From a plasmid, in the NCBI RefSeq assembly GCF_055900595.2, contig NZ_JBVWEU010000004.1: DNA of 41,714 nucleotides; one strand, 5' to 3'. The translations under genes were made by a program, and so were the position numbers. Below, in pieces: positions 145 through 41,714 of this stretch (its first letter is position 1; each line of letters begins with the position of its first letter). Below the pieces are notes generated by a model. It made no database searches, had not been told where the DNA came from, and saw only the letters and a program-made list of their open reading frames with translations.

Positions 145-867
145 ATGGATACTCAAGCACTCTTGCCAGCTACTAAAACGTTTAAAAAACGCGCCAGTAT
201 AAAGCAATCTAACGAATTGACCGAAGCTGCATATTACCTGCCTCTTCAGGCAAAACGTGTGCTGTGGTTATGCCTCATGCAGGCCTATTTTAATGACAGC
301 CAGGAAGATGACTCTGACGTATTGCCGCTCTTCAAAATCAGCGTTTCCGATTACGTCAAATACTTCAATGTCGCTACGTCTGTCGCCAGTCGTGATGTGA
401 AGGCTGGGGTAAATGCTCTGGGCGAATCAACGGTTACCTTTTATCCAAAAGAAGGTGAGTTTGAAGAAGTTAAACGTCCGTGGCTGGCTGAAGCAGGAAT
501 GAAGCGAGGCCGGGGTTCCTGGCAGATTGAATTTAACTACAAGGTCATGCCATTCCTGGTCGGCTTAACCTCCCAGTTCACTACCTATTCTCTCTATGAC
601 TGTGGCCAGCTTAATAGTGTTCGTGTCATCCGGCTTTATGAAAGCCTGTGTCAGTTCCGGAGCACTGGTGTCTGGATCACCACACATGACTGGTTATGTG
701 AAAGGTTTATGCTCCCTGCCTCGCAGAAAAACAATATTGCTGAAATGAAGCGTACCTTCCTGGAACCTGCTCTGAAGAAAATTAATGAGAAGACGCCATT
801 AAAGGTAACATATACCACTGAAGAAGATGGTCGCTTGCTGTTTAATTTTCTTGATAAAAAACAATAG
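145..867 (+). CDS. repB: Rep_3-family iteron-binding replication initiator (RepE-like; IncR repB-like), 240 aa from ATG 145
   Basis: ORF track 1..867. The motif IKQSNELTEAAYYLPLQAKRVLW matches the RepE N-terminal motif VQSNDLTEAAYSL, which sits about 25 aa from the start, so ATG 145 (MDTQALL) is favoured. Iterons lie on both sides. Confidence 0.85.
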   Translation: MDTQALLPATKTFKKRASIKQSNELTEAAYYLPLQAKRVLWLCLMQAYFNDSQEDDSDVLPLFKISVSDYVKYFNVATSVASRDVKAGVNALGESTVTFYPKEGEFEEVKRPWLAEAGMKRGRGSWQIEFNYKVMPFLVGLTSQFTTYSLYDCGQLNSVRVIRLYESLCQFRSTGVWITTHDWLCERFMLPASQKNNIAEMKRTFLEPALKKINEKTPLKVTYTTEEDGRLLFNFLDKKQ

Positions 868-927: not shown

Positions 928-1337
928 TTGCTGTGTTTCCCATAGTGCTTGCCTAACTTGACCTGTTTCCCACACTCCCGACCGTCCGAGAAGTTGACCT
1001 GTTTCCCATAGTCCGGGCCGTCCGAGAAGCTGACCTGTTTCCCTTAGTCCGGGCCGTCCGCGAAGTTGACCTGTTCCCCACACTCCCGGCCGCCCGCGAA
1101 GTTGACCTGTTTCCCACAGTCCGGGCCGTCTGCAAAGTTGACCTGTTTCCCACAGTCCCGGCCGCCCGCGAAGTTGACCTGTTTCCCATAATCCGGGCCG
1201 TCCGCGAAGTTGACCTGTTCCCCACACTCCCGGCCGCCCGTGAAGTTGACCTGTTTCCCATAGTCCGGGCCGTCCGCGAAGTTGACCTGTTTCCCATAGT
1301 CCGGAGCGTCCATTAAAGTTGACCTGTTTCCCACAGA
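928..1337 (+). repeat. Iteron array: 11 copies of a 36-bp unit TTGACCTGTTTCCCA(C/T)AGTCCGGGCCGTCCGCGAAG (starts 958, 994 ... 1282, 1319) plus a degenerate copy at 928
   Basis: Periodicity counted directly. Sits immediately downstream of the rep stop, like incC of mini-F. Confidence 0.9.
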
Positions 1338-3989: not shown

Positions 3990-5261
3990 TTACGCCAGTT
4001 TCGCTGAAGGAATATCTGACCATCGTGTCGTATAAGCAGGAGAAAGCATCTCCCGTTTCATCTGCCATTCCGGGGCAATACCCCGCCCCGCAAACCATAC
4101 TTTACCCAGCCCTGAGTTGTTGATCCCGTCCAGAACCTTCATCAGCTCAGCACTGTAAGGGCGTGGCGGGCGTTCGTCGAACAGCTGCAGCTGCGAAACG
4201 CCGGAGCCGGTGAAGTCATTCAGCATAACTCCGGCTTTGGCATACCGGTGCCCATCCCTCCAGATACGCTCCAGAGCCGTTGTAGCGGCTGCAATGATGT
4301 CCCTGGTGTCCTGAGTGGGTGTAAGAAGTTTTTCCGTAGCCACGTTGCCGTAGTAAGGCTCTTTAATGGCGAACGGAGACGTTTTGATGAAAACGGAAAT
4401 ATGCCGGCAATACTGGTGCTCTTTACGCAGTTTTTCAGAGGCCCGCTCTGCGTGCTGACAGATAGCCTGACGGAGTGACTCGTACTCCGTGATCTTCACG
4501 CCAAAACTGCGGCTGCAGACAATTTGCTGTTTCGTCGGAGGGGCTTCCTCAAGCGAAAGGCAGCTTTCCCCGTTCAGTTCCCGTACCGTTCGCTCAAGGA
4601 CCACAGAAAAATTTTTGCGGATGAAGGCCGGGTTCGTCAGGGCGAGATCGAGCGCGGTCTTAATGCCCAGTACATTCAGCTTGCGTGCAATACGGTTACC
4701 CACCCCCCAGATTTCTTCAACCGGCTGCAGTGAAAGCAGTTTCCGCGTTCTCTGCGGATTTCCCCTGGTCAGAGCAAGTACGCCACGAAACTGTTTCCAC
4801 TCTTTTGAGGCCCACTGGGCTGATTTTGCGAGGGTCTTCGTTGGTCCGGCGCCCACGCCAATGGTCAGGTGGGTACAGTCATACACGTGCTGACGCAGCT
4901 GCCGGCCGAAGTCCTCAAGCTCCATACAGTGCTCCACGCCGGTCAAATCGAGGAACATCTCATCAATTGAATACTGTTCCACTCTGGGGGCCAGTTCCTC
5001 CAGGCTGTTCATCACGCGCGCCAACATCGAGGCATAAAGTTCATAGTTACTTGAAAACGCATATATTTTTTCCGGGTATCTTTCGTTTTTTATCTGAAAC
5101 CACGGAGTTTCCATTTTGATCCAGGGCTTCGCCTCGGCACTGCGAGCGATTACATTCCCGTCGTTGTTGCTCAGGACGACTATCGGCTTTCCTTTCAAAT
5201 CCGGGCGGAAAACACGTTCACAGCTGGCATAGAAGCTGTTCACATCGGCCAGGGCAAACAT
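3990..5261 (-). CDS. umuC: Y-family translesion DNA polymerase V catalytic subunit UmuC, 423 aa
   Basis: N-terminus [22 protein letters not shown] and overall UmuC/MucB-like sequence. The start overlaps the umuD stop by 1 nt. Confidence 0.93.
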
Positions 5262-5692
5262 CAGTACATCTCCCTCGGGCGGTGGATGATATGCGTGACG
5301 ACGCCAAAGATATCCAGCTCGTCGGGATCAGGATAAATCGGCGACCAGGAGGCATTCATGGGCTGCAGCGTCAGTCGCGGCGTCAGCAGAAGCCGTTTCA
5401 CCGTAAACTCCCCCTGCATGCTGGCGACAACGATATCGCCGTGCCGCGGCTTTTCAGCACTGTCCACAACCAGCAGATCGCCATTGTACAGACTGCCGTC
5501 GGCCATGCTGTCTCCGCTGGCACGCAGGTAGTACGTCGCGCTCGGATGCCGTATGCAGTAATCATGGAGATCCAGATCGGACTCGACATAGTCAGCAGCA
5601 GGGCTGGGAAAACCGCAGCTGGCCAGATCGGCAAACAATGGATGGGCCTGTGGCGGGAGTTCTTTCCCGGTGCTGAAAAGTTGTAGTTTCAT
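5261..5692 (-). CDS. umuD: UmuD (LexA-like self-cleaving Pol V accessory subunit), 143 aa from ATG 5692
   Basis: Cys-Gly cleavage site LASCGFPSP, Ser (ASGDSM) and Lys (FTVKRL) catalytic dyad, RBS GGAGGAAAG before MKLQLF. The ORF-track 5-prime extension is spurious. Confidence 0.9.
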
Positions 5693-5717
5693 CTTTCCTC
5701 CTGACACTCTAATTTTA

Positions 5718-5733
5718 CTGGTTATACATACAG
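5718..5733 (-). promoter_or_regulatory. LexA (SOS) box CTG-N10-CAG, followed on the coding strand by a TAAAAT -10 hexamer
   Basis: Minus strand reads CACTGTATGTATAACCAGTAAAAT, 25 nt upstream of the umuD ATG. Matches the TACTG(TA)5CAGTA consensus. Confidence 0.8.
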
Positions 5734-7645
5734 TGCTCACCGGGAGACCGGTAGAGATCAAGGGGTGAAAGTCCCCGACCATTGAAGGACCAGCAATCCA
5801 CAAGGTCCCCGAGTCATGCGTTGCATACCGCGAGGTATGGGGCGAAGCGTTGACAGGGGTGTTGACAGGCCAGCCATTGAGCCACGAAATGTATATTAAA
5901 TTACCGGGTGCCGACGTTGTACTGTTAACGGAAGGCAACATCATAGGGTGCGATACTGCGAGTGCCACATGGACCCGGCGGGGTCTGAGACCCTGGCATG
6001 TCAATACGATCTCTACGCGGGAACCGGGAGATCTCCCCTCTGACCATCTGCCAGTGTCGGAGACGGCCCGCACCGGGAAGACGAGGAGTCATAGCCGGTG
6101 ATGTACGGAGAGGAGAAGTCGGACTCGCTCATAGTAGCGGCGAAGCAGGCGAACAACCCGAAAGGAGCGGAGTCAGTGGAGCGAAGGAGCGGGGCCAAGG
6201 GGAACGCGGAACAGCCACACATGCGCCGGACACAGAGCCGGGAAAGCATGTCACAGAGGCTGTCACGCGTGCGGGAAGCTGCGAAGCAGCGGAAGAAAGA
6301 ACGGTTTACAGCATTGTTCCACCTGCTGACAGTCGAAGCACTGGAAGCCGCATTCCTCTCCCTGAGCAGGAAAGCGGCCGCCGGAGTGGATGGCATCAGG
6401 TGGATGGACTACGCCGGAAACATGAAGAACAACATAACAGATCTGCACCGGAGGCTACATTAGGGCAGCTACAGGGCGCAGCCCGGCAGGCGTCACTACA
6501 TCCCAAAAGCGGATGGAAAACAACGCCCGCTCGGCATCGCCTCGCTGGAGGACAAGATCGTCCAGTATGCGCTGGTGAAAATCCTGAACGCAGTCTATGA
6601 AAACGACTTTATGGGGTTCTCATACGGGTTCAGACCCGGGCGAAGCCAGCACGATGCACTGGACGCACTGGCCACAGGGCTGGTACGCACTAACGTAAAC
6701 TGGGTACTGGATGCCGACATCAGTCAGTTCTTCGACAGGGTGAGCCACGAATGGCTGATCAGGTTCACAGAGCATCGGATCGGCGACCGGAGCGTAATCA
6801 GGCTCATACGTAAGTGGCTCACAGCCGGGACGTTGGAGGAGGGTCAATGGCGAGCAACGGAGGAAGGCACCCCACAGGGTGCGGTCATCTCACCGCTGCT
6901 GGCAAACATATACCTCCACTACGTCTTCGATCTGTGGGCGCATCAGTGGCGACGTCGCTATGCCACAGGCAATGTGGTAATGGTCAGATACGCCGATGAC
7001 ATCGTCATCGGGTTCGACAAACGATACGATGCCCGGCGCTTCCGTATAGCCATGCAGCGCAGACTGAGGGAGTTCGGACTCACGGTTCACCCGGAGAAAA
7101 CCCGTCTGATGGAGTTCGGCCGCTTCGCTGCCGAAAACCGTGCCATCAGGGGAAAAGGCAAACCAGAAACGTTCAACTTCCTCGGGTTCACGCACATCAG
7201 CGGGAAAGATCGCAACGGCAGGTTCATGCTGATACGAAAGACCCGCCGGGATCGGATGACGGCAACTCTGAAAGCCATCAAAGACGGTCTGCGAAGGCGC
7301 TGGCATTACTCAATCCCCGAACAGGGAAAATGGCTCAGGAGAGTGGTTCAGGGATACCTGAACTATCACTCGGTACCGGGCAACTTCCCCACCATGCAGA
7401 AGTTCAGGACACACGTAACAAACCTCTGGCGCCGGGCGCTCAGGCGCAGGAGCCAGAAGGATGATACGACCTGGACGAAAGCAAACAAACTGGCAGCCGC
7501 ATGGCTACCAAGGGTTCGGGTTCTTCATCCATGGCCTGTGGAGCGGTTCACCGCCAGACACCCGAGGCAGGAGCCCGGTGCGTAAATCGCGCACGCCGGG
7601 ATCTGTGCGGGGGGTATCCGGTAACGGGTATCCCTACCGCGACAT
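5734..7645 (+). mobile_element. Group II intron ('retA' element); both boundaries approximate
   Basis: Structured RNA leader, an RT/maturase ORF in domain IV position, and a GC hairpin tail ending ...CCCTACCGCGACAT. Only about 365 nt precede the ORF and there is no clean GUGYG 5-prime end. Confidence 0.7.
6098..7585 (+). pseudogene. retA: Group II intron reverse transcriptase/maturase interrupted by a single in-frame TAG (6461-6463)
   Basis: ORFs 6098..6463 and 6575..7585 share one frame. The read-through gives [40 protein letters not shown]. RT motifs FRPGRSQHDAL and YADD are present. Confidence 0.85.
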
Positions 7646-7736
7646 ATTTAACAGCGTGACGATAATCCAGATCGCCTGCCGGATAATGGTGCCAACTTAC
7701 TGATTTAGTGTACGATGGTGTCTTTGAGGTGCTCCA

Positions 7737-8012
7737 GTGGCTTCCATCTCCATCAGTTGTCCCTCCTGCTCAGCTACTGAAGGCGTGGTGCGTAACGGTA
7801 AAAGTACTGCCGGACATCAGCGCTATCTCTGCTCTCACTGCCGTAAAACATGGCAGCTACAGTTCACTTACACCGCCTCTCAGCCCGGTACGCACCAGAA
7901 AATCATTGATATGGCCATGAATGGCGTTGGATGCCGGGCAACCGCCCGCATTATGGGCGTTGGCCTCAACACGATTTTACGTCACTTAAAAAACTCAGAC
8001 CGCAGTCGGTAA
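7737..8012 (+). CDS. insA: IS1 InsA, 91 aa
   Basis: [43 protein letters not shown] is typical InsA. Confidence 0.9.
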
Positions 8013-8434
8013 CCTCACGCATACAACCGGGCAGTGACGTCATTGTCTGCGCGGAAATGGACGAACAGTGGGGCTACGTCGGGGCTAAATCACGTCAGCG
8101 CTGGTTATTTTACGCCTATGGCAGGATGTGCAGGACGGTGGTGGCACGCGTCTTTGGTGAGCGTACTCTGGCCACGCTGGAGCGTCTTCCGGGCCTGCTG
8201 TCGGCCTTTGAGGTCGTGGTATGGATGACGGATGGCTGGCCGCTTTATGAATCCCGCCTGAAGGGAGAACTGCACGTTATCAGCAAGCGATATACGCAGC
8301 GAATTGAGCGGCATAACCAGAATCTGAGGCAGCATCTGGCAAGGCTGGGCAGGAAGTCACTGTCGTTCTCAAAATCGGTGGCGCTGCATGACAAAGTCAT
8401 CGGGCATTATCTGAACATAAAACACTATCAGTAA
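7931..8434 (+). CDS. insB: IS1 InsB frame (expressed as InsAB' through a -1 frameshift at A6C, 7988-7994)
   Basis: The ORF overlaps insA in the -1 frame. The TTAAAAAACTC slippery motif is present. Confidence 0.88.
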
Positions 8435-8449
8435 GTTGGAGTCATTACC

Positions 8450-8752
8450 AACCAGTTCACCACCTACTCGCTCCGCGATTGTGGCAGTCTTCGAAATCCC
8501 CGGACGATCCGCCTTTATGAAAGTCTTGCTCAATTCAAATCTTCAGGCTTATGGGTTACTACTCATGCTTGGTTAAATGACCGTTTCGTCTTACCGGAAT
8601 CCCAGCAGAAGAACTTGGCAGAGTTGAAACGATCTTTCCTTGATCCTGCACTCAAGCAGATAAATGAGAAAACACCTTTACTTGCTAAGTATAGTATTGA
8701 TGATTCAGGAAAATTTCTGTTCTCAATAATTGATAAGCAAAATCCCGTCTGA
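8450..8752 (+). pseudogene. 3-prime 100 codons of a second, paralogous Rep_3 initiator gene, truncated by IS1
   Basis: In-frame translation from 8450 (NQFTTYSLRDCGSLRNPRTIRLYESLAQFKSSGLWVTTHAWL...INEKTPL...) is roughly 60% identical to the C-terminus of the Rep at 145-867. Confidence 0.85.
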
Positions 8753-8803
8753 CATAAATCAGCACACATGAGCCTGTCATTTGACAAATTTTTGTCATGA
8801 AGA

Positions 8804-9155
8804 TGGGCGGATTTCCACACAGCACCGGCGCCCGGTAAGGTGGGCGGATTCCCACACGGCACCGGCGCCCGGCAAGATGGGCGGATTTCCACACAGCACC
8901 GGCGCCCGGTAAGGTGGGCGGATTTCCACACAGCACCGGCGCCCGGCAAGGTGGGCGGATTCCCACACGGCACCGGCGCCCGGCAAGATGGGCGGATTTC
9001 CACACAGCACCGGCGCCCGGTAAGGTGGGCGGATTTCCACACAGCACCGGCGCCCGGCAAGGTGGGCGGATTCCCACACGGCACCGGCGCGCGGCAAGGT
9101 GGGCGGATTTCCACACGGCACCGGCGCCCGGCAAGGTGGGCCGATTCCCATATCG
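8804..9155 (+). repeat. Second iteron array: 10 copies of a 37-bp unit (G/A)TGGGCGGATT(T/C)CCACAC(A/G)GCACCGGCGCCCGG(C/T)AAG, starts 8804-9137, with a 111-bp higher-order pattern
   Basis: Periodicity counted directly. Same position relative to the truncated rep as array 928-1337, with a related core (TTTCCACACAG vs TTTCCCACAG). Confidence 0.9.
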
Positions 9156-9641
9156 ACATGTATGTAGCTTGTGTTATCTGTGGATTGTGCAGCTCAGCGG
9201 GTCGCTGGTCGTATGGCGGAGTGTCCCCCGTAACCGGCCGCGTGCGGCCGCTAACGCGCAGTACGGCGCCGCGTCCCGCAGACGGGCCGCCGTTCCCGCG
9301 CGCAGCACTGCGCACCCCCGTGGGGGACGTACGGCAGCTGCGTGGCGGTGAGCGGGATTAGGGCTTTGCAGCTACCGTGTTAAGTTCCCTGGTGTCGCTG
9401 AAATAGTTGATGAACATCCCCCTAAGCGTCAGCAGCAAGCTGCCGCCGCTTAGGCCCCGGAAATCACGCCCTTTACGTCGTAAACGCCGTAAAGCCCGCT
9501 CACCGGGGTTAAAAGGGATTACTTTGACTTCTTCATTGCTGTTCGCGAGTTAAGGCTAATCAGGGCAGGGGGTAGGGTGGCAGAATTTATAGCCCGGCAA
9601 CCGGCTACGCCGGGCTTTCGGCGCCATTTTACAACACAGAC

Positions 9642-10698
9642 GGCTTTGTTGAATAAATCGAACTTTTGCTGAGTTGAAGGATCAGATCACGCATCTTCCC
9701 GACAACGCAGACCATTCCGTGGCAAAGCAAAAGTTCAAAATAACCAACTGGCCCACCTACAATAAAGCCCTCATCAACCGTGGCTCCATAACTTTCTGGC
9801 TGGATGATGAAGCTATTCAGGCCTGGTATGAGTCGGCAACGCCTTCATCACGGGGAAGACCTCAGCGCTATTCTGATCTCGCCATCACCACCGTTCTGGT
9901 CATTAAACGCGTGTTCAGGTTGACCCTGCGGGCTGCACAGGGTTTTATTGATTCCATTTTTACACTGATGAATGTTCCGTTGCGCTGCCCGGATTACACC
10001 AGTGTCAGCAAGCGCGCAAAGTCGGTTAATGTCAGTTTCAAAACGTTCACCCGGGGTGAAATCGCGCATCTGGTGATTGATTCCACCGGGCTGAAGGTCT
10101 TTGGTGAAGGCGAATGGAAAGTCAAAAAGCATGGCCAGGAACGCCGTCGTATATGGCGAAAGTTGCATCTGGCAGTTGACAGCAACACACATGAAATCAT
10201 CTGTGCAAACCTGTCGCTGAACAATGTGACGGACTCAGAAGCCTTCCCGGGTCTTATCCGGCAGACTCACAGAAAAATCAGGGCAGCATCGGCAGACGGC
10301 GCTTACGACACCCAACTCTGTCACGATGAACTGCGGCGTAAGAAAATCAGCGCGCTTATCCCGCCCCGAAAAGGCGCGGGTTACTGGCCCGGTGAATATG
10401 CAGACCGTAACCGTGCTGTTGCGAATCAGCGGCTGACCGGGAGTAATGCGCGGTGGAAATGGACAACAGATTACAACCGTCGCTCGATAGCGGAAACGGC
10501 GATGTACCGGGTAAAACAGCTGTTCGGAGGTTCACTGACACTGCGTGACTACGATGGTCAGGTTGCAGAGGCTATGGCCCTGGTACGAGCGCTGAACAAA
10601 ATGACGAAAGCAGGTATGCCTGAAAGCGTGCGTATTGCCTGAAAACACAACCCGCTACGGGGGAGACTTACCCGAAATCTGATTTATTCAACAAAGCC
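9642..10698 (+). mobile_element. IS903-like insertion sequence (IS5 family), 1057 bp, complete
   Basis: 18-bp terminal inverted repeats GGCTTTGTTGAATAAATC / GATTTATTCAACAAAGCC. The sequence matches the recalled IS903 left end. Confidence 0.9.
9674..10642 (+). CDS. IS903 DDE transposase (ORF track 322 aa; GTG at 9719 would give the expected 307 aa)
   Basis: Single long ORF filling the IS. IS5-family transposase sequence. Confidence 0.88.
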   Translation: MKDQITHLPDNADHSVAKQKFKITNWPTYNKALINRGSITFWLDDEAIQAWYESATPSSRGRPQRYSDLAITTVLVIKRVFRLTLRAAQGFIDSIFTLMNVPLRCPDYTSVSKRAKSVNVSFKTFTRGEIAHLVIDSTGLKVFGEGEWKVKKHGQERRRIWRKLHLAVDSNTHEIICANLSLNNVTDSEAFPGLIRQTHRKIRAASADGAYDTQLCHDELRRKKISALIPPRKGAGYWPGEYADRNRAVANQRLTGSNARWKWTTDYNRRSIAETAMYRVKQLFGGSLTLRDYDGQVAEAMALVRALNKMTKAGMPESVRIA

Positions 10699-10781: not shown

Positions 10782-11168
10782 TCAGAATTTTTTGTTGAAC
10801 TTCTTAGGGTCGAAATTCTCACCGATTTTCTTGAAGAATTCTTTATCAATAATGCCGGGACTCTCTGCTTTTTTACTTTCCTGCACTTCAGGCTCAGACG
10901 GTTGTGTATTGTGCAATACACTTTCCGCTGCACCCTTCGCGCTACTCTTATCATGCGTATTGTGCAATACATTTTTTCGGTTTTGCCGCGTTCTATACAG
11001 TGCCATCTCAAGCCCTTTGGCTGTTACCGAAAAGCTGTATTCGCTGTCGAGGATTTCAGCAATTTCATGCCGCGTTAGCCCTCTGTCCAGCCAGTTCTCG
11101 ATTTCATTTAGGCGCAATCTGACAGCAGCCGATAAGTTGCGGGGTTTCAGATCTGCTGGTTTATTCAT
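10782..11168 (-). CDS. Hypothetical 128-aa protein with an N-terminal HTH-like segment (DRGLTRHEIAEILD) and a low-complexity, lysine-rich tail
   Basis: ORF with RBS GGAGGGGG. Preceded by an 11-bp-phased repeat array. No family recognised. Confidence 0.6.
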   Translation of the reverse strand: MNKPADLKPRNLSAAVRLRLNEIENWLDRGLTRHEIAEILDSEYSFSVTAKGLEMALYRTRQNRKNVLHNTHDKSSAKGAAESVLHNTQPSEPEVQESKKAESPGIIDKEFFKKIGENFDPKKFNKKF

Positions 11169-11229
11169 AACCCCCTCCGTTGTATGAAAATGACTCTACA
11201 ACACTCGTAAGAAGGGGTCAATCGAGTTT

Positions 11230-11380
11230 TGTAGTTTATCTGTAGTTTTATTGTAGTCTATTTGTAGTCTGTCACGTTTTTTGTAGTTTATTTGTAGTTT
11301 TATTGTAGTCTATTTGTAGTCTTACAACACTAAGGCAAAACGTTTTTTGTAGTTTATCTGTAGTTTATCTGTAGTTTTTG
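11230..11380. repeat. Eleven TGTAGT(T/C)T(A/T)T(C/T) units at strict 11-bp phasing in three clusters (4 at 11230-11270, 4 at 11282-11322, 3 at 11348-11380). Clusters 1 and 2 are a 52-bp-offset duplication (40/41 identical)
   Basis: Unit starts counted at 11230, 11241, 11252, 11263, 11282, 11293, 11304, 11315, 11348, 11359 and 11370. TACAACACT flanks lie at 11197 and 11323. Confidence 0.85.
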
Positions 11381-15215: not shown

Positions 15216-16415
15216 TCAGCGATCGGCTCGTTGCCCTGCGCCGCTCCAAAGCCCGCGACGCAGCGCCGGCAGGCAGAGCAAGTAGAGGGCAGCGCCTGCA
15301 ATCCATGCCCACCCGTTCCACGTTGTTATAGAAGCCGCATAGATCGCCGTGAAGAGGAGGGGTCCGACGATCGAGGTCAGGCTGGTGAGCGCCGCCAGTG
15401 AGCCTTGCAGCTGCCCCTGACGTTCCTCATCCACCTGCCTGGACAACATTGCTTGCAGCGCCGGCATTCCGATGCCACCCGAAGCAAGCAGGACCATGAT
15501 CGGGAACGCCATCCATCCCCGTGTCGCGAAGGCAAGCAGGATGTAGCCTGTGCCGTCGGCAATCATTCCGAGCATGAGTGCCCGCCTTTCGCCGAGCCGG
15601 GCGGCTACAGGGCCGGTGATCATTGCCTGGGCGAGTGAATGCAGAATGCCAAATGCGGCAAGCGAAATGCCGATCGTGGTCGCGTCCCAGTGAAAGCGAT
15701 CCTCGCCGAAAATGACCCAAAGCGCGGCCGGCACCTGTCCGACAAGTTGCATGATGAAGAAGACCGCCATCAGGGCGGCGACGACGGTCATGCCCCGGGC
15801 CCACCGGAACGAAGCGAGCGGGTTGAGAGCCTCCCGGCGTAACGGCCGGCGTTCGCCTTTGTGCGACTCCGGCAAAAGGAAACAGCCCGTCAGGAAATTG
15901 AGGCCGTTCAAGGCTGCCGCGGCGAAGAACGGAGCGTGGGGGGAGAAACCGCCCATCAGCCCACCGAGCACAGGTCCCGCGACCATCCCGAACCCGAAAC
16001 AGGCGCTCATGAAGCCGAAGTGCCGCGCGCGCTCATCGCCATCAGTGATATCGGCAATATAAGCGCCGGCTACCGCCCCAGTCGCCCCGGTGATGCCGGC
16101 CACGATCCGCCCGATATAGAGAACCCAAAGGAAAGGCGTCGTCGCCATGATGGCGTAGTCGACAGCAGCGCCGGCCAGCGAGACGAGCAAGACCGGCCGC
16201 CGCCCGAAACGATCCGACAGCGCGCCCAGCACAGGTGCGCAGGCAAATTGCATCAACGCATACAGCGCCAGCAGAATGCCATAGTGGGCGGTGACGTCGT
16301 TCGAGTGAACCAGATCGCGCAGGAGGCCCGGCAGCACCGGCATAATCAGGCCGATGCCGACAGCGTCGAGCGCGACAGTGCTCAGAATTACGATCAGGGG
16401 TCTGTTGGGTTTCAC
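15216..16415 (-). CDS. tetA: Tetracycline efflux MFS pump TetA, class A, 399 aa from GTG 16415
   Basis: VKPNRPLIVILSTVALDAVGIGLIMPVLPGLLRD... is typical TetA(A). Divergent from tetR. The ORF-track N-extension is ignored. Confidence 0.93.
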   Translation of the reverse strand: MKPNRPLIVILSTVALDAVGIGLIMPVLPGLLRDLVHSNDVTAHYGILLALYALMQFACAPVLGALSDRFGRRPVLLVSLAGAAVDYAIMATTPFLWVLYIGRIVAGITGATGAVAGAYIADITDGDERARHFGFMSACFGFGMVAGPVLGGLMGGFSPHAPFFAAAALNGLNFLTGCFLLPESHKGERRPLRREALNPLASFRWARGMTVVAALMAVFFIMQLVGQVPAALWVIFGEDRFHWDATTIGISLAAFGILHSLAQAMITGPVAARLGERRALMLGMIADGTGYILLAFATRGWMAFPIMVLLASGGIGMPALQAMLSRQVDEERQGQLQGSLAALTSLTSIVGPLLFTAIYAASITTWNGWAWIAGAALYLLCLPALRRGLWSGAGQRADR

Positions 16416-16463
16416 GTCTGGCCTCCGGACCAGCCTCCGCTGGTCCGATTGAACGCGCGGATT

Positions 16464-16511
16464 CTTTATCACTGATAAGTTGGTGGACATATTATGTTTA
16501 TCAGTGATAAA
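16464..16511. promoter_or_regulatory. Two tet operators (CTTTATCACTGATAAG 16464-16479; TTTATCAGTGATAAA 16497-16511) in the tetA/tetR divergent promoter region
   Basis: Palindromic TetR-operator-type sequences between the divergent genes. Confidence 0.8.
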
Positions 16512-17979: not shown

Positions 17980-18852
<873 letters not shown>

Positions 18853-26716: not shown

Positions 26717-27730
26717 CTACCTCTCACTAGTGAGGGGCGGCAGCGCATCAAGCGGTGAGCGCACTCCGGCACCGCCAACTTTCAGCACATGCGTGTAAAT
26801 CATCGTCGTAGAGACGTCGGAATGGCCGAGCAGATCCTGCACGGTTCGAATGTCGTAACCGCTGCGGAGCAAGGCCGTCGCGAACGAGTGGCGGAGGGTG
26901 TGCGGTGTGGCGGGCTTCGTGATGCCTGCTTGTTCTACGGCACGTTTGAAGGCGCGCTGAAAGGTCTGGTCATACATGTGATGGCGACGCACGACACCGC
27001 TCCGTGGATCGGTCGAATGCGTGTGCTGCGCAAAAACCCAGAACCACGGCCAGGAATGCCCGGCGCGCGGATACTTCCGCTCAAGGGCGTCGGGAAGCGC
27101 AACGCCGCTGCGGCCCTCGGCCTGGTCCTTCAGCCACCATGCCCGTGCACGCGACAGCTGCTCGCGCAGGCTGGGTGCCAAGCTCTCGGGTAACATCAAG
27201 GCCCGATCCTTGGAGCCCTTGCCCTCCCGCACGATGATCGTGCCGTGATCGAAATCCAGATCCTTGACCCGCAGTTGCAAACCCTCACTGATCCGCATGC
27301 CCGTTCCATACAGAAGCTGGGCGAACAAACGATGCTCGCCTTCCAGAAAACCGAGGATGCGAACCACTTCATCCGGGGTCAGCACCACCGGCAAGCGCCG
27401 CGACGGCCGAGGTCTTCCGATCTCCTGAAGCCAGGGCAGATCCGTGCACAGCACCTTGCCGTAGAAGAACAGCAAGGCCGCCAATGCCTGACGATGCGTG
27501 GAGACCGAAACCTTGCGCTCGTTCGCCAGCCAGGACAGAAATGCCTCGACTTCGCTGCTGCCCAAGGTTGCCGGGTGACGCACACCGTGGAAACGGATGA
27601 AGGCACGAACCCAGTTGACATAAGCCTGTTCGGTTCGTAAACTGTAATGCAAGTAGCGTATGCGCTCACGCAACTGGTCCAGAACCTTGACCGAACGCAG
27701 CGGTGGTAACGGCGCAGTGGCGGTTTTCAT
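26717..27730 (-). CDS. intI1: Class 1 integron integrase IntI1, 337 aa (R32/N39 variant)
   Basis: [44 protein letters not shown]... Confidence 0.96.
27615..27643 (+). promoter_or_regulatory. Cassette promoter Pc, strong variant (TTGACA-N17-TAAACT). The P2 site at about 27731-27757 has the inactive 14-nt spacer
   Basis: TTGACA 27615-27620 and TAAACT 27638-27643 read directly. TTGTTATGACTGTTTTTTTGTACAGT lacks the GGG insertion. Confidence 0.85.
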
Positions 27731-27874: not shown

Positions 27875-28372
27875 ATGAACTCGGAATCAGTACGCATTTA
27901 TCTCGTTGCTGCGATGGGAGCCAATCGGGTTATTGGCAATGGTCCTAATATCCCCTGGAAAATTCCGGGTGAGCAGAAGATTTTTCGCAGACTCACTGAG
28001 GGAAAAGTCGTTGTCATGGGGCGAAAGACCTTTGAGTCTATCGGCAAGCCTCTACCGAACCGTCACACATTGGTAATCTCACGCCAAGCTAACTACCGCG
28101 CCACTGGCTGCGTAGTTGTTTCAACGCTGTCGCACGCTATCGCTTTGGCATCCGAACTCGGCAATGAACTCTACGTCGCGGGCGGAGCTGAGATATACAC
28201 TCTGGCACTACCTCACGCCCACGGCGTGTTTCTATCTGAGGTACATCAAACCTTCGAGGGTGACGCCTTCTTCCCAATGCTCAACGAAACAGAATTCGAG
28301 CTTGTCTCAACCGAAACCATTCAAGCTGTAATTCCGTACACCCACTCCGTTTATGCGCGTCGAAACGGCTAA
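27875..28372 (+). CDS. dfrA12: Trimethoprim-resistant dihydrofolate reductase DfrA12, 165 aa
   Basis: MNSESVRIYLVAAMGANRVIGNGPNIPWKIPGEQKIFRRLTEGKVVVMGRKTFESIGKPLPNRHTLVISRQANY... Confidence 0.93.
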   Translation: MNSESVRIYLVAAMGANRVIGNGPNIPWKIPGEQKIFRRLTEGKVVVMGRKTFESIGKPLPNRHTLVISRQANYRATGCVVVSTLSHAIALASELGNELYVAGGAEIYTLALPHAHGVFLSEVHQTFEGDAFFPMLNETEFELVSTETIQAVIPYTHSVYARRNG

Positions 28373-28779: not shown

Positions 28780-29571
28780 ATGAGGGAAGCGGTGACCATC
28801 GAAATTTCGAACCAACTATCAGAGGTGCTAAGCGTCATTGAGCGCCATCTGGAATCAACGTTGCTGGCCGTGCATTTGTACGGCTCCGCAGTGGATGGCG
28901 GCCTGAAGCCATACAGCGATATTGATTTGTTGGTTACTGTGGCCGTAAAGCTTGATGAAACAACGCGGCGAGCTTTGATCAACGACCTTTTGGAAACTTC
29001 GGCTTCCCCTGGAGAGAGCGAGATTCTCCGCGCTGTAGAAGTCACCATTGTTGTGCACGACGACATCATTCCGTGGCGTTATCCAGCTAAGCGCGAACTG
29101 CAATTTGGAGAATGGCAGCGCAATGACATTCTTGCAGGTATCTTCGAGCCAGCCACGATCGACATTGATCTGGCTATCTTGCTGACAAAAGCAAGAGAAC
29201 ATAGCGTTGCCTTGGTAGGTCCAGCGGCGGAGGAACTCTTTGATCCGGTTCCTGAACAGGATCTATTTGAGGCGCTAAATGAAACCTTAACGCTATGGAA
29301 CTCGCCGCCCGACTGGGCTGGCGATGAGCGAAATGTAGTGCTTACGTTGTCCCGCATTTGGTACAGCGCAGTAACCGGCAAAATCGCGCCGAAGGATGTC
29401 GCTGCCGACTGGGCAATGGAGCGCCTGCCGGCCCAGTATCAGCCCGTCATACTTGAAGCTAGACAGGCTTATCTTGGACAAGAAGAAGATCGCTTGGCCT
29501 CCCGCGCAGATCAGTTGGAAGAATTTGTTCACTACGTGAAAGGCGAGATCACCAAGGTAGTCGGCAAATAA
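28780..29571 (+). CDS. aadA2: Aminoglycoside (3'')(9) adenylyltransferase AadA2, 263 aa
   Basis: MREAVTIEISNQLSEVLSVIERHLESTLLAVHLYGSAVDGGLKPYSDIDLLVTVAVKLDETTRRALINDLLE... Confidence 0.93.
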   Translation: MREAVTIEISNQLSEVLSVIERHLESTLLAVHLYGSAVDGGLKPYSDIDLLVTVAVKLDETTRRALINDLLETSASPGESEILRAVEVTIVVHDDIIPWRYPAKRELQFGEWQRNDILAGIFEPATIDIDLAILLTKAREHSVALVGPAAEELFDPVPEQDLFEALNETLTLWNSPPDWAGDERNVVLTLSRIWYSAVTGKIAPKDVAADWAMERLPAQYQPVILEARQAYLGQEEDRLASRADQLEEFVHYVKGEITKVVGK

Positions 29572-31252: not shown

Positions 31253-32044
31253 CTAACCAAGGGCTTTGGATATTTTCAAGGCATCTGATAAAGACTTAAC
31301 ATCATGGGTGCGGAGATAATCTGCACCTTTTTTGTATGCATACATTTCTGCTGCAAGAGTTGGTGCTAAACGAGATTTCACATCGGTTCCAGTTATTTTA
31401 CCTAAGAATGATTTCCGTGACACTGCAATCATTACTTGCAAATTAAAAGCTTCTTGAATTTCAGGGAAACGCTTCAAAACAAGAATAGATGTTTCTGGAT
31501 TAGAGCCTAAAAAGAAGCCCATACCCGGATCAAGAATAATTCGTTCACGCTTTACACCAGCCTCAACTAAAGCAGCAATTCTTTCTTTAAAAAATTCCAT
31601 CATGGAAGTAAAAACCTCTTCCGGATTCGTTTCAACTTTAGTAGCTGCACCAATTCGCTGAACGGAGTGCATCAACACAAGTTTGCAATCTGACTTTGCC
31701 AAGCCTGAATAAATCTCAGGATAAGGAAAACCTTGAATATCATTAATAAAATCAACCTTTTGTTCTATGCAAAAACTCTGAACCTCAGGTTTAAATGTAT
31801 CAACAGAAATAGAAATGCCTTTTTCTTTTAAAGCCTTAATGACAGGTTTGAGTCTTTTGATTTCTTCCACAACGCCCACTTCAGTTGTATCAGGATTACT
31901 GGAAGCGGCTCCCAAATCAATCACATCTGCTCCATCTTCAACCAAATGCAGAGCATGCTCAATTGCCTTATCTGTATCTAAATAAAGTCCTCCATCGGAA
32001 AAACTATCGGTGGTTATATTTACGATTCCAAAAATCTTGCTCAT
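31253..32044 (-). CDS. sul3: Sulfonamide-resistant dihydropteroate synthase Sul3, 263 aa
   Basis: MSKIFGIVNITTDSFSDGGLYLDTDKAIEHALHLVEDGADVIDLGAASSNPDTTEVG... Confidence 0.93.
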   Translation of the reverse strand: MSKIFGIVNITTDSFSDGGLYLDTDKAIEHALHLVEDGADVIDLGAASSNPDTTEVGVVEEIKRLKPVIKALKEKGISISVDTFKPEVQSFCIEQKVDFINDIQGFPYPEIYSGLAKSDCKLVLMHSVQRIGAATKVETNPEEVFTSMMEFFKERIAALVEAGVKRERIILDPGMGFFLGSNPETSILVLKRFPEIQEAFNLQVMIAVSRKSFLGKITGTDVKSRLAPTLAAEMYAYKKGADYLRTHDVKSLSDALKISKALG

Positions 32045-34064: not shown

Positions 34065-34884
34065 GGCACTGTTGCAAAGTTAGCGATGAGGCAGCCTTTT
34101 GTCTTATTCAAAGGCCTTACATTTCAAAAACTCTGCTTACCAGGCGCATTTCGCCCAGGGGATCACCATAATAAAATGCTGAGGCCTGGCCTTTGCGTAG
34201 TGCACGCATCACCTCAATACCTTTGATGGTGGCGTAAGCCGTCTTCATGGATTTAAATCCCAGCGTGGCGCCGATTATCCGTTTCAGTTTGCCATGATCG
34301 CATTCAATCACGTTGTTCCGGTACTTAATCTGTCGGTGTTCAACGTCAGACGGGCACCGGCCTTCGCGTTTGAGCAGAGCAAGCGCGCGACCATAGGCGG
34401 GCGCTTTATCCGTGTTGATGAATCGCGGGATCTGCCACTTCTTCACGTTGTTGAGGATTTTACCCAGAAACCGGTATGCAGCTTTGCTGTTACGACGGGA
34501 GGAGAGATAAAAATCGACAGTGCGGCCCCGGCTGTCGACGGCCCGGTACAGATACGCCCAGCGGCCATTGACCTTCACGTAGGTTTCATCCATGTGCCAC
34601 GGGCAAAGATCGGAAGGGTTACGCCAGTACCAGCGCAGCCGTTTTTCCATTTCAGGCGCATAACGCTGAACCCAGCGGTAAATCGTGGAGTGATCGACAT
34701 TCACTCCGCGTTCAGCCAGCATCTCCTGCAGCTCACGGTAACTGATGCCGTATTTGCAGTACCAGCGTACGGCCCACAGAATGATGTCACGCTGAAAATG
34801 CCGGCCTTTGAATGGGTTCATGTGCAGCTCCATCAGCAAAAGGGGATGATAAGTTTATCACCACCGACTATTTGCAACAGTGCC
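34065..34884 (-). mobile_element. IS26 (820 bp)
   Basis: 14-bp IRs GGCACTGTTGCAAA at both ends. The sequence matches recalled IS26. Confidence 0.96.
34117..34821 (-). CDS. tnp26: IS26 transposase Tnp26, 234 aa from ATG 34821
   Basis: MNPFKGRHFQRDIILWAVRWYCKYGISYRELQEMLAERGVNVDHSTIYRWVQRYAPEMEK... Confidence 0.95.
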   Translation of the reverse strand: MNPFKGRHFQRDIILWAVRWYCKYGISYRELQEMLAERGVNVDHSTIYRWVQRYAPEMEKRLRWYWRNPSDLCPWHMDETYVKVNGRWAYLYRAVDSRGRTVDFYLSSRRNSKAAYRFLGKILNNVKKWQIPRFINTDKAPAYGRALALLKREGRCPSDVEHRQIKYRNNVIECDHGKLKRIIGATLGFKSMKTAYATIKGIEVMRALRKGQASAFYYGDPLGEMRLVSRVFEM

Positions 34885-35916
34885 ATAACGACTGCGTTTG
34901 CGAATGATCCTGTGCCCCAGAAAGATAAAGCCGTCATTAACATGGGTGATTTTAGTCTTATCCATGTTCAGCCTGAGTTTCAGACTGCCTTCGAGCACAC
35001 CCCGACACTCCTCCCTGATGGCTTCCGCCTGTGCTTTGGTGCCTTTGACGATGGGGACAAAATCATCGGCATAGCGGCAGTACGCCACCGCGGGTTTCCA
35101 CTGCCAGTTTTCTCTGACCGCCGTACTTCGGCCCCGTTGGATACTGTTATTCCAGTACCACCGATCTTTTCTGGCTTTCCCGCTCAGGTAGCGCTCATGC
35201 AGGTATTGATCGAACTCATTCAGCATGATGTTCGATAATAGCGGCGATATAACACCGCCCTGTGGCACACCTTCACTGGCCGCCCGAAAGAGACCGACAT
35301 CGATATGTCCCGCCTTGATGGTTTTCCACAGCAGAGTCATGAAACGTGCGTCACTGATCCTGCGGCGTACAGCCTTCATCAGCAGTCGATGATGTACGGT
35401 GTCGAAGTAACTGGACAGGTCGCCTTCAATCACCCAGCGTCCCCGGGTTTCACCGCAGTCTGTGAGCTGTAATTTCACCGTGCGGATCGCGTGGTGGACA
35501 CTGCGCTCAGGCCGGAAGCCATATGAGAGCGTATGAAAATCACTCTCCCATATCGGCTCCATCGCCATCAGCATGGCCCGCTGAACAATACGATCCCGCA
35601 ACGCGGGGATACCCAGTGGTCGCAGTTTGCCGTTGCTTTTAGGGATGTAAACCCGTCTGGCGGGCAAGGGCTGGTAGTGGCCTGAGAGTAATTCATCCCT
35701 GAGGATTTGCAGCTCAACAGCCAGTCTGGCCTGTAGCATTGTTTTGTTCACGCCATCAACGCCGGGGGTATGCGCCCCCTTTGATGAAAGCGTGATCCGC
35801 GCCGCTTCAGCCAGCCATTCTGGTTGTGTTATCAGACGCAGCAGCCGTTGAATCCGTAGGGACGGATCGGTGGCTGCCCATGTGGCAAGCTTGCGTTGCA
35901 TTTCGCTGATTATCAA
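34885..35916 (-). pseudogene. Group II intron RT/maturase, C-terminally truncated (about 344 aa retained)
   Basis: RT motifs RRVYIPKSNGKLRPLGIPALRDRIVQ, FRPERSVHHAI and YADDFV. The track ORF tail VANSRW is IS26 sequence. Confidence 0.85.
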
Positions 35917-37259: not shown

Positions 37260-37277
37260 AGACTCCTCCTATGCTCA

Positions 37278-37357
37278 AACTATAGGGCAGATTTGTCTAC
37301 GGGCTCGGGGTCACTCCAACTATAGGGCAGATTTGTCTACGGGCTCGGGGTCACTCC
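37278..37357. repeat. Exact tandem duplication (2 x 40 bp) of AACTATAGGGCAGATTTGTCTACGGGCTCGGGGTCACTCC, which is the terminal sequence of the IS3-family element
   Basis: 37278-37317 and 37318-37357 are identical. Confidence 0.9.
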
Positions 37358-37358
37358 A

Positions 37359-41510: not shown

Positions 41511-41527
41511 TTATCCACTTATCCACG
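41511..41527 (+). promoter_or_regulatory. Two overlapping DnaA boxes, TTATCCACT (41511-41519) and TTATCCACG (41519-41527)
   Basis: 8/9 matches to TTATCCACA, immediately before an AT-rich tract. Confidence 0.6.
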
Positions 41528-41530
41528 GGC

Positions 41531-41580
41531 ATATTTTTATAAAGTACTTTTTTATTCTTTTTCTTTATTTTACATCTTTT
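41531..41580. other. AT-rich putative DNA-unwinding region of oriV
   Basis: ATATTTTTATAAAGTACTTTTTTATTCTTTTTCTTTATTTTACATCTTTT lies between the DnaA boxes and the iterons. Confidence 0.55.
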
Positions 41581-41625
41581 AGGGAGCCTGAAAGCCGCGT
41601 ACAGTGCGGCCTGAGAGGGGGCCTG

Positions 41626-41714
41626 TATGGGCAACTGGTAAACATAATATGGGAAATTAATCACGTATCAGTGGGTTTTGTGTCAACAAGCTATGGGATA
41701 TGCATCAACAAGCT
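41626..41714 (+). repeat. Origin iterons: TATGGG-type units at exact 22-bp phasing (41626, 41648, 41670, 41692), with a fifth starting at 41714 and completed by window nt 1-21
   Basis: The unit core TATGGGAAAcAGGTCAAC is the reverse complement of the 36-bp-array core. The copy spanning the window ends matches it 16/18. Confidence 0.7.

Follow-up and report, generated by a model that had tools for sequence, protein, structure and literature searches.

An IS1-truncated IncN1 replicon

The plasmid analysed here (41,714 nucleotides, contig NZ_JBVWEU010000004.1; this whole stretch is called the window below) carries, next to an IS1 element, a decayed IncN1 replicon. With a probability that we put at roughly 70%, the locus is an inert fossil that exerts at most a weak, dose-dependent titration of IncN RepA. 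Its parts and borders are as follows.

7682..8449, + strand: IS1, IS1X3-type, 768 bp (sequence; IS1X3 annotation in near-identical plasmids)
8450..8752, + strand: pseudogene, IncN1 repA codons 140-239 and stop (Pfam, protein identity, mapping on L003)
8753..8799, + strand: spacer from the repA stop to the first repeat (near-identical to L003 1874-1920, by eye)
8800..9152, + strand: orphan 'iteron I' array of IncN, 10 units spaced exactly 37 bp apart (Tandem Repeats Finder, core scans)
9153..9375, + strand: G+C-rich IncN-derived flank 3' of the array (alignment to L003 with indels up to ~9375, then divergence)
9642..10698, + strand: IS903B (IS5 family), right border of the remnant (terminal repeats ggctttgttgaataaatcg and cgatttattcaacaaagcc; ORF 9674-10642)

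The truncated gene (8450-8749) holds exactly 100 codons followed by a TGA stop (8750-8752), and its protein shares 99% identity with genes that are intact in IncN-typed plasmids and annotated 'replication initiation protein' (hits H39-H47). On the intact IncN plasmid L003 the junction maps to position 1571, which is codon 140 of repA. Codons 1-139, amounting to 58% of the gene, and all upstream DNA are lost, with IS1 in their place. Of a Rep_3 initiator, the pseudogene retains WH2 and the end of WH1. Pfam Rep3_C scores 39.7 bits on it (cut-off 21.1), and Rep3_N matches with its last 25 profile positions only (20 bits, below the cut-off of 22.4); the two winged-helix domains of a Rep_3 protein are not found together in one ORF. 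A preliminary description of this DNA held that IS1 has removed a Rep_3 gene, roughly 60% identical to the functional Rep, up to its last 100 codons. Both statements are borne out, as IS1 (7682-8449) directly adjoins 8450-8752 and the remnant and the C-terminal part of the live Rep (145-867) agree at 59/97 positions (61%).

The remnant lacks a promoter and a usable start codon. PGAP labels it an incomplete pseudogene with a missing N-terminus, and the ORF list of the window holds no + strand ORF of at least 50 aa in the remnant repA frame; the first in-frame start-type codon, located by eye, would give only ~45 aa. We also considered a truncated Rep fused to InsB. They share a reading frame, yet the InsB stop at 8432-8434 comes between them. 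Because MOB-suite assigns 'IncFIA,IncR' to some sister plasmids, the F-plasmid RepE (IncFIA) was also considered as a source. It was rejected, being only 32% identical to the fragment, and FIA typing primers had no match in the window even with 3 mismatches allowed; a source for that IncFIA assignment did not emerge.

By its sequence, the dead replicon is assigned to IncN1. The retained 100 codons are close to the repA of typed IncN plasmids, and a 37-bp 'iteron I' array lies directly 3' of repA, as in IncN1 plasmids. A complete repA with its promoter and the IncN1 origin module (DnaA box, AT-rich tract and five 22-bp iterons upstream of repA) are missing. The remnant agrees with the IncN1 basic replicon of pCU1, R46 and pKM101 in its repA tail (99%), in spacer and 37-bp unit, in both terminal units of the array and in the flank beyond it, whereas it lacks the origin module and the larger part of repA and has a shorter array. 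Since codons 1-139 and the upstream DNA are lost, the remnant is a non-working relic of the IncN1 family.

The retained iteron array

Tandem Repeats Finder reports, for 8800-9150, a period of 37, 9.5 copies, 92% matches and a score of 590. A core scan resolves 10 units with starts from 8800 to 9133 and a spacing of exactly 37 bp; the final unit consists of a ~20-bp core only, like the end of intact IncN arrays. The array starts 47 bp past the repA stop, and its unit, spacer and ends are as in L003, L007 and L010. The conserved element of the units, AAGGTGGGCGGATT(C/T)CCACA, is read as the initiator-binding core because intact IncN plasmids have it in their five origin iterons upstream of repA as well; these iterons, inverted and 22-bp in L003, match the array core AAGGTGGGCGGATTCCCA. 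Repeated sites that match the origin iterons of an initiator, a mark of iteron-based copy control, are thus present in the orphan array. On the IncN matrix, its units score 36.7 bits on average, against 39.0 for an intact array.

The pCU1 array has 13 units. The intact IncN plasmids that we examined have 32-39, with 37 units of 37 bp in L003. The array had been described as intact, full and regular; its regularity and both of its ends stand, but with 10 units against 32-39 it is not of full size. Judged by sequence and position, what is retained is the downstream 'iteron I' block of IncN and not the origin. The flank at 9153-9375 probably corresponds, from its position, to the 'CUP6' element, which in IncN1 plasmids separates iteron I from resP (PMC6052338).

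The unit types along the array read ABACBACDEF. The 111-bp higher-order pattern noted earlier is real but modest, with 96.7% self-identity at lag 111 versus 92.0% at lag 37. ORFs of 118-250 aa that run across the array on both strands were discarded as by-products of the repeat and not genes. An Rfam scan of 5200-9800 found no RNA family in the remnant, its sole match being domains D1-D4 of a group II intron.

The lost origin and the live IncR replicon

In L003, the origin module lies upstream of repA at 850-1070 and consists of a DnaA box, an AT-rich tract and five inverted 22-bp iterons. When up to 4 mismatches to the IncN core were allowed, the whole window yielded just the 10 array units. 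The remnant would be unable to start RepA-dependent replication from the upstream iteron origin, and is expected to play no part in plasmid maintenance. The live replicon of the window is of the IncR type.

145..867, + strand: live IncR initiator gene repB (Pfam Rep3_N and Rep3_C; sister plasmids typed IncR)
955..1337, + strand: downstream 36-bp array of the live replicon, 11 cores (Tandem Repeats Finder, core scan)
41511..41714, - strand: IncR origin with two DnaA-box-like TTATCCAC repeats, an AT-rich tract and 22-bp-spaced inverted iterons (sequence reading)

The TTATCCAC repeat sits at 41511-41526. A core scan at up to 6 mismatches found two of the five 22-bp positions of the IncR origin (41626 and 41714), the remaining three being weaker. 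The last of these iterons (41714) crosses the end of the window into position 1; therefore the window is a closed circle.

pCU1 has three replication origins. That there is more than one, with oriS dependent on RepA, is stated by works cited in PMC7826253, and the array, the spacer and ~220 bp of downstream IncN DNA are all kept in the window. A replicon that is still partly alive could be imagined on these grounds, with a secondary pCU1 origin (oriS or oriV) at or near the array firing via host Pol I or supplied RepA. We give this hardly any credence. The DnaA box, AT-rich tract and origin iterons are all upstream of repA in L003 and deleted here, and sister plasmids that carry the remnant alone are not typed IncN; one of them, H1, is typed IncR alone.

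The earlier claim of a dead second replicon with a surviving downstream iteron array agrees with these data: the rep gene is truncated by IS1, and the arrays of the dead and the live replicon are homologous in core sequence as well as in architecture. The 22-nt core consensuses of the orphan array and the live 36-bp array share 15/22 positions, so the two are related as proposed. The core that had been listed (TTTCCACACAG...CCGG...AAG) needs correction, since it is the half in common with IncR plus spacer, and not AAGGTGGGCGGATT(C/T)CCACA.

Could the array cross-talk with the plasmid's own initiator? IncR RepB would then bind its units, which would burden the IncR replicon with additional copy control or handcuffing. 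RepB and IncN RepA are 57% identical over their full length (BLASTP), and the shared core positions include the whole TTYCCCACA half. Furthermore, the orphan units average 6.9 bits on the IncR matrix, where the 99.9th percentile of the background is -2.0, and this is similar to IncR's own degenerate upstream iterons (average 9.1). However, the core half conserved within each family differs (GTTGAC in IncR, GGTGGGC in IncN), and the orphan units lie ~29 bits under the true IncR downstream units. Hybrids that combine an IncR backbone, the remnant and an intact IncN1 replicon exist (PMC6353027), and otherwise similar IncR backbones carry anything from 2 to 24 units with no compensation seen. We therefore consider cross-talk very unlikely.

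Rearrangement junctions at both borders

The IS1 element contains InsA/InsB-type ORFs (7737-8012 and 7931-8434) and is labelled 'IS1-like element IS1X3 family transposase' in near-identical plasmids. Its right end is the junction with the truncated rep gene; its left end adjoins IncR backbone, ~35 bp past a group II intron. A simple insertion of IS1 would be flanked by a 9-bp direct target duplication. None is present around this copy, with cgcctgccg (7673-7681) on the left and aaccagttc on the right. IncR backbone on the left and IncN DNA on the right argue that IS1 marks a deletion or recombination junction. The element at the right border, annotated in sister plasmids as IS5 / IS903B family transposase, likewise lacks a target-site duplication (9642-10698). 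As neither element has one, both appear to sit at rearrangement junctions. A second IS903B copy begins at ~11717.

These borders suggest how the locus may have formed. An ancestral IncR plasmid would have carried IncN replication DNA, from which an IS1X3-associated rearrangement removed the origin, the repA promoter and the first 139 codons. This would have left the repA tail, the 'iteron I' array of 37-bp units and a piece of the IncN element that follows, with IS903B on the other side.

A published scar with a variable array

The exact junction between IS1 and repA occurs in at least 680 PLSDB plasmids. Of 5,426 complete E. coli genomes, 154 contain a 40-nt junction word, spread over 159 records; 5 of its 167 matched places in E. 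coli are chromosomal. Among species-representative genomes, one contig has the junction; it belongs to Citrobacter freundii and ends inside the array. The junction nucleotide is the same in hundreds of plasmids, and the structure has a single origin. It probably arose in one event and was then inherited with a successful IncR backbone, with IS-mediated moves into other plasmids and chromosomes.

The structure is an already known, published scar and a widely inherited fossil. It corresponds to 'region N' of IncR plasmid pST1023 (PMC9412624) and to the 'cryptic IS1X3-to-IS26 region' of p721005-KPC and p504051-KPC (PMC6353027), and was also published in PMC11047700. Like the window, region N of pST1023 has IS1X3, the IncN repA remnant, 37-bp iterons and IS903B immediately after the retA group II intron; only the unit count differs, with 10 units here, 24.3 copies in pST1023 (PMC9412624) and 2-24 units elsewhere. 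The published accounts consulted, including PMC9412624 and PMC6353027, neither tested nor discussed a function for the orphan array. As a published scar that marks one IncR lineage, the structure is in itself of little importance. Its junction can serve as a clean marker of that backbone lineage, and the number of units as a fast-evolving marker for tracking sub-lineages. For annotation, the remnant should not be taken for a second functional replicon.

Arrays of 2, 8, 10, 11 and 24 units occur with identical flanks, and match lengths suggest a possible 7-unit form. The unit string of the 24-unit array contains those of the window, L001 and L002 as subsequences, which indicates contraction. 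Thus, the window array seems derived by deletion from the 24-unit form, and its 111-bp pattern would be inherited. The preliminary description had taken this pattern for a sign of recent amplification. That proposal is not borne out: the same ACB/ACD higher-order prefix is common to 24-unit and 11-unit arrays in other hosts, and the window string is contained in the 24-unit array. Unequal recombination between identical units could account for such drift in size, mostly by shrinkage.

Co-residence with IncN plasmids

Tandem initiator sites that follow rep, lie apart from the origin and point the other way from its iterons are known from P1 incA, F incC and the downstream repeats of RepFIB. Cloned downstream iterons exert incompatibility in pCU1, P1 incA and F incC. 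In P1, F and RepFIB these loci act in a live replicon on its own initiator, whereas here the cognate gene is dead; any effect of the array could for this reason fall only on a co-resident IncN plasmid. From general iteron biology, incompatibility or handcuffing by the orphan array would be a plausible idea, one that finds no positive support in our analysis.

We examined how often the scar and IncN occur together. The junction and IncN repA 5' sequence are found together in 34 of 5,426 E. coli genomes versus 9.5 expected (odds ratio 4.7; figures by inclusion-exclusion on genome counts). Both are on the same record in 26 cases. They are on separate replicons in at least 8 genomes, a count that is inexact for functional IncN because the IncN set was defined by any match to the repA 5' region and takes in other truncated repA copies. 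The excess of co-occurrence reflects mostly same-molecule hybrids and shared ecology (multidrug-resistant animal and clinical isolates), and is not a measure of compatibility.

Such hybrids could also arise if the main effect of the remnant were recombinational: with ~0.9 kb homologous to IncN, made up of 303 bp of repA, the array and ~220 bp beyond, a non-conjugative IncR plasmid could fuse with a conjugative IncN plasmid and travel with it. The 26 E. coli records with both on one molecule, and a co-occurrence ~3.6 times chance, are in keeping with this. The arrangement of the hybrids is not. In NZ_CP137706.1, the remnant and an intact repA are on opposite strands and 68 kb apart, where a simple homologous cointegrate would differ. 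In p504051-KPC, the IncN1 module is inside the catA2 accessory region, among IS26-flanked units and away from the remnant (PMC6353027). Published accounts blame mainly IS26 and other mobile elements (PMC9412624, PMC11047700), and we hold a recombinational role to be highly improbable.

Live IncN plasmids do occur in bacteria with the fossil. The clearest example is strain CUVET18-789, in which the chromosome bears an orphan array of 11 units and a 48.8-kb IncN plasmid with a single rep gene and 39+5 sites is also present. In two other strains the orphan array is plasmid-borne: ABWA45 has 2 units beside a single-replicon IncN plasmid, and M159-1 has 24, with an IncX1 replicon in addition on its IncN plasmid. 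These two strains are not clean tests. Their pattern is what dose-dependent incompatibility would give, and two cases prove nothing.

These data bear on whether the orphan array is an active incompatibility determinant against IncN, which titrates or handcuffs RepA, excludes IncN plasmids and so benefits the IncR plasmid. We consider this unlikely. The array units are near-consensus IncN sites, orphan arrays recur independently, and in both plasmid-borne cases either the array has collapsed to 2 units or the IncN partner has a second replicon. On the other hand, an 11-unit array coexists with a single-replicon IncN plasmid, the number of genomes with separate replicons (at least 8) is near the 9.5 expected by chance, and the array varies in size from 2 to 24 units. 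Moreover, IncN plasmids carry 37-44 sites each, which makes 10 extra units a small fractional load. Together these results indicate that strong exclusion of IncN by the array looks unlikely.

A bolder form of the idea, which we think distinctly improbable, is that IncR and IncF33 plasmids keep orphan arrays as a dose-dependent weapon, 10-30 RepA sites without repA lowering the copy number of an incoming single-replicon IncN plasmid. Lasting co-residence would then require either a smaller array or a second replicon acquired by the IncN plasmid, and ABWA45 and M159-1 fit this. If true, one resistance plasmid would interfere with another by means of a dead replicon, with a bearing on how resistance plasmids stack in a cell.

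We favor the inert fossil. The iterons are termed 'the RepA-binding site' in PMC9412624, which cites Papp & Iyer 1995, and by sequence the 10 units are good IncN RepA sites that would probably bind some RepA if an IncN plasmid were present. They would add about one quarter to the sites already on that plasmid, and the outcome would be at most a mild, dose-dependent drop in IncN copy number, not exclusion.

A 5'-truncated IncN repA that keeps a long 37-bp array, with another replicon driving the plasmid, is found independently in IncF33:N1 plasmids (pHNAH17 and relatives, PMC6052338). These repA-iteron I-CUP6-resP remnants differ from the present one in their truncation by IS26, their breakpoint, their 28-31 units and their IncFII F33 backbone (PMC6052338). 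Orphan IncN iteron I arrays have thus arisen at least 2 times, through IS1X3 here and through IS26 in IncF33, which could hint at selective retention.

An IncN1 replicon remnant between IS1 and IS903B

The remnant region carries these features:
7682-8449, IS1, its right inverted repeat ending at 8449
8450-8752, repA remnant, exactly 100 sense codons, ended by TGA (8750-8752)
9642-10698, IS903B, the right boundary

A preliminary description of a Rep_3 gene cut by IS1 to its last 100 codons, roughly 60% identical to the functional Rep and followed by ten highly regular 37-bp units, was borne out. The translated remnant scores 39.7 bits against Pfam Rep3_C (cut-off 21.1), and its match to Rep3_N is confined to the final 25 positions; its identity to the C-terminus of the live initiator at 145-867 is 61% (59/97). 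The repA stop is separated by 47 bp from the array, which Tandem Repeats Finder places at 8800-9150 (9.5 copies, 92% matches, score 590). Scanning the whole window with the core AAGGTGGGCGGATTCCCACA revealed 10 units at an exact 37-bp spacing, from 8800 to 9133, and no further unit outside this array. Neither IS1 nor IS903B shows a target-site duplication, indicating that each sits at a junction left by rearrangement and is not a simple insertion.

When the 100-residue fragment was compared with 72,556 plasmid records in a translated search, it matched intact genes for a 'replication initiation protein' with 99% identity, among them repA (1154-1873 of locus L003) in CP042643.1, typed IncN, MOBF and MPF_T. 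Upstream of this gene lie a DnaA-box-like site, an AT-rich tract and five 22-bp-spaced repeats (964-1069) whose core, TGGGAATnnGCCCACCTT, is the reverse complement of the 37-bp unit core; downstream, the same spacer as in the window precedes 37 units of the 37-bp repeat. The IS1 junction maps to codon 140 of this gene, thus the remnant comprises IncN1 repA codons 140-239 and the downstream 'iteron I' array. Judged by this alignment, repA has lost its promoter and 139 codons along with the origin module, and the array was kept, in agreement with the earlier view of a dead second replicon. IncN homology beyond the array ends at ~9375, and by position this stretch would correspond to CUP6, an element located between iteron I and resP (PMC6052338).

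Among E. coli plasmids, IncN repA truncations with other breakpoints recur: some matches begin 35-38 nt inside the gene, and others retain only ~100 nt of the queried 5' region. The differing breakpoints indicate that IncN replicons within multi-replicon plasmids commonly decay and have done so more than once.

The remnant is a known fossil carried by a successful IncR lineage

The locus, a decayed IncN1 replicon that travels with a successful IncR lineage, is a fossil already in the literature. It was described as 'region N', comprising IS903B, IS1X3, the IncN repA remnant and 37-bp iterons in 24.3 copies (PMC9412624), likewise in PMC11047700, and as the 'cryptic IS1X3-to-IS26 region' (PMC6353027); none of these three descriptions includes a test of orphan-array function. 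Sister plasmids display the order parAB, umuCD, group II intron, IS1X3, repA remnant, array, IS5/IS903B, stbA. A 101-nt query across the junction (coverage >=80%) matched at least 680 PLSDB records. Using a 40-nt junction-centred word, which cannot seed on IS1 alone or repA alone, we found 159 records in 154 of 5,426 complete E. coli genomes; 5 of the 167 matched places were chromosomal. The breakpoint is identical in all carriers, pointing to a single ancestral event.

The array has most likely contracted

Sister arrays vary in unit number between identical flanks.

Unit types of the window array and of comparison loci
L005, 2 units, GJ
L002 (NZ_CP110155.1), 8 units, ABACDDCF
Window, 10 units, ABACBACDEF
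L001 (CP099300.1), 10 units, ABACBGDDEF
L009, 11 units, AIBACBACDBF
L006, 24 units, ABACBACDDCDDHIIBGDDCDDEF

Match lengths suggest that a 7-unit form exists too. The 111-bp pattern noticed earlier is real, as self-identity of the array is 96.7% at lag 111 versus 92.0% at lag 37, but it is limited to two periods, ACB and ACD. Its proposed recent amplification did not hold: the same pattern occurs in the 24- and 11-unit arrays and is thus older than the window plasmid. All units of the window, L001 and L002 occur in the same order within the 24-unit string, and the first eight and last two units of that string make up the window array. A single unequal exchange pairing two identical D units of the 24-unit form would produce the window array, which, on these unit strings, has most likely contracted.

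Intact IncN plasmids that we examined carry 32-39 downstream units; counts of 28-31 are given for iteron I in PMC6052338. In the IncN+IncX1 plasmid NZ_CP058721.1 (2859-4259 of locus L008), the units of the iteron I array are not uniformly 37 bp apart: several spacings are 36 bp and one gap measures 109 bp, reflecting either repeat indel variants or long-read assembly errors.

The live IncR replicon is unlikely to engage the orphan units

The core scan placed an IncR iteron across 41714|1 (stretch 41626-41714 joined to 1-20), and since this upstream iteron continues from the last base into the first, the window contains the whole of a circular plasmid of 41,714 bp. Numbering begins arbitrarily at an ATG (position 1) within the origin region; repB most likely starts at 145. 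Upstream of repB are two TTATCCAC boxes (41511-41526), an AT-rich tract and 22-bp-spaced inverted iterons, and downstream is a 36-bp array with 11 cores. The intact IncN1 replicon shares this plan of upstream inverted 22-bp iterons and a downstream array, and full-length identity between RepB(IncR) and RepA(IncN) is 57%.

The suggested kinship of the two arrays stands, as the core consensuses have 15 of 22 positions in common, the shared part being the TTYCCCACA half; however, the core listed earlier consisted mostly of this shared half and spacer. The family-specific half differs (GTTGAC in IncR, GGTGGGC in IncN). Under an IncR matrix, the orphan units score a mean of 6.9 bits, well above the background 99.9th percentile (-2.0) and similar to the degenerate upstream IncR iterons (mean 9.1), yet ~29 bits under true downstream IncR units. 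Hybrids combining the IncR backbone and remnant with an intact IncN1 replicon are also known (PMC6353027). Action of RepB(IncR) on the orphan units is therefore unlikely.

Effects on IncN plasmids are predicted to be small

The remnant repA has no promoter, and its frame, which is that of InsB but lies after the InsB stop codon, contains no start codon yielding >=50 aa, hence the remnant cannot make RepA. With a complete IncR replicon present and the IncN origin module absent, the remnant, as read from its sequence, adds nothing to replication of the plasmid. That a residual secondary origin, such as oriS or oriV of pCU1, persists near the array is an unlikely alternative.

Cloned downstream iterons exert incompatibility, as documented for pCU1, P1 incA and F incC. 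Under an IncN matrix, the orphan units average 36.7 bits versus 39.0 for an intact array, which marks them as predicted near-consensus IncN sites, and the incompatibility or handcuffing first envisaged is thus reasonable in principle. An IncN plasmid carries 37-44 sites, and ten more add roughly a quarter, predicting a small effect at most. Strong exclusion of IncN plasmids is unlikely in view of the co-residence described below; a weak, dose-dependent effect may occur.

The remnant co-resides with IncN plasmids

As an indirect test of incompatibility, we examined natural co-residence in the 5,426 complete E. coli genomes, using as IncN marker the repA 5' region that the remnant lacks. This region occurs in 335 genomes, and a concatenated query with the junction word matched 455 genomes (480 records). 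By inclusion-exclusion on genome counts, 34 genomes carry both markers versus 9.5 expected (odds ratio 4.7). In 26 records both lie on one molecule, leaving at least 8 genomes with separate replicons, close to the chance expectation.

We opened three strains with separate replicons. CUVET18-789 harbors a chromosomal 11-unit array together with an IncN plasmid of 48.8 kb that has a single rep gene and 39+5 sites; here the array is cleanly tolerated at single-copy dose. ABWA45 carries a single-replicon IncN plasmid beside an orphan array of only 2 units, and M159-1 a 24-unit array with an IncN partner that also has an IncX1 replicon; these two fit both a fossil and an incompatibility determinant.

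The same-molecule records raise the idea that the remnant serves as a homology patch for IncR-IncN fusion. We do not favour this, since the remnant in NZ_CP137706.1 lies 68 kb from the intact repA and in inverted orientation to it, and the IncN1 module of p504051-KPC lies away from the remnant, in an accessory region containing IS26-flanked units (PMC6353027).

Other features of the plasmid

An orphan stbA (10782-11168, minus strand; StbA_2, NCBIfam, 204 bits) lies in segment 10699-11716, between two directly oriented IS903B copies (9642-10698 and from ~11717); stbB and stbC are absent from this segment. Upstream of stbA, arrays of the 11-bp repeat TTTGTAGTTTA (11228-11377) are possibly StbA-binding sites. 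MOB-suite types vary among sister plasmids ('IncFIA,IncR' or 'IncR' only, comparing L002 with L001). Classical FIA primer sequences have no match in the window. The first-reported IncR plasmid, pK245, was grouped among F-:A13:B- plasmids (PMC6052338).

A complete group II intron lies directly left of IS1, within 5768-7646, with Rfam D1-D4 at 5768-5993 and its reverse transcriptase/maturase ORF at 6098-7585. A second reverse transcriptase/maturase ORF (34858-35913, minus strand) scores 295.9 bits, just below the 300-bit cut-off. The resistance region (12015-33659) includes three Tn3-family transposase ORFs.

15216-16490, minus strand, tet(A)
17980-18840, minus strand, blaTEM
26717-27730, minus strand, integron integrase
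27875-28372, dfrA12
28780-29571, aadA-family gene
31253-32044, minus strand, sul3

In the backbone, upstream of a tyrosine-recombinase gene (39861-40637), the 40-bp unit CTCCAACTATAGGGCAGATTTGTCTACGGGCTCGGGGTCA is repeated at 37274-37358 (2.1 copies, 97% identity).
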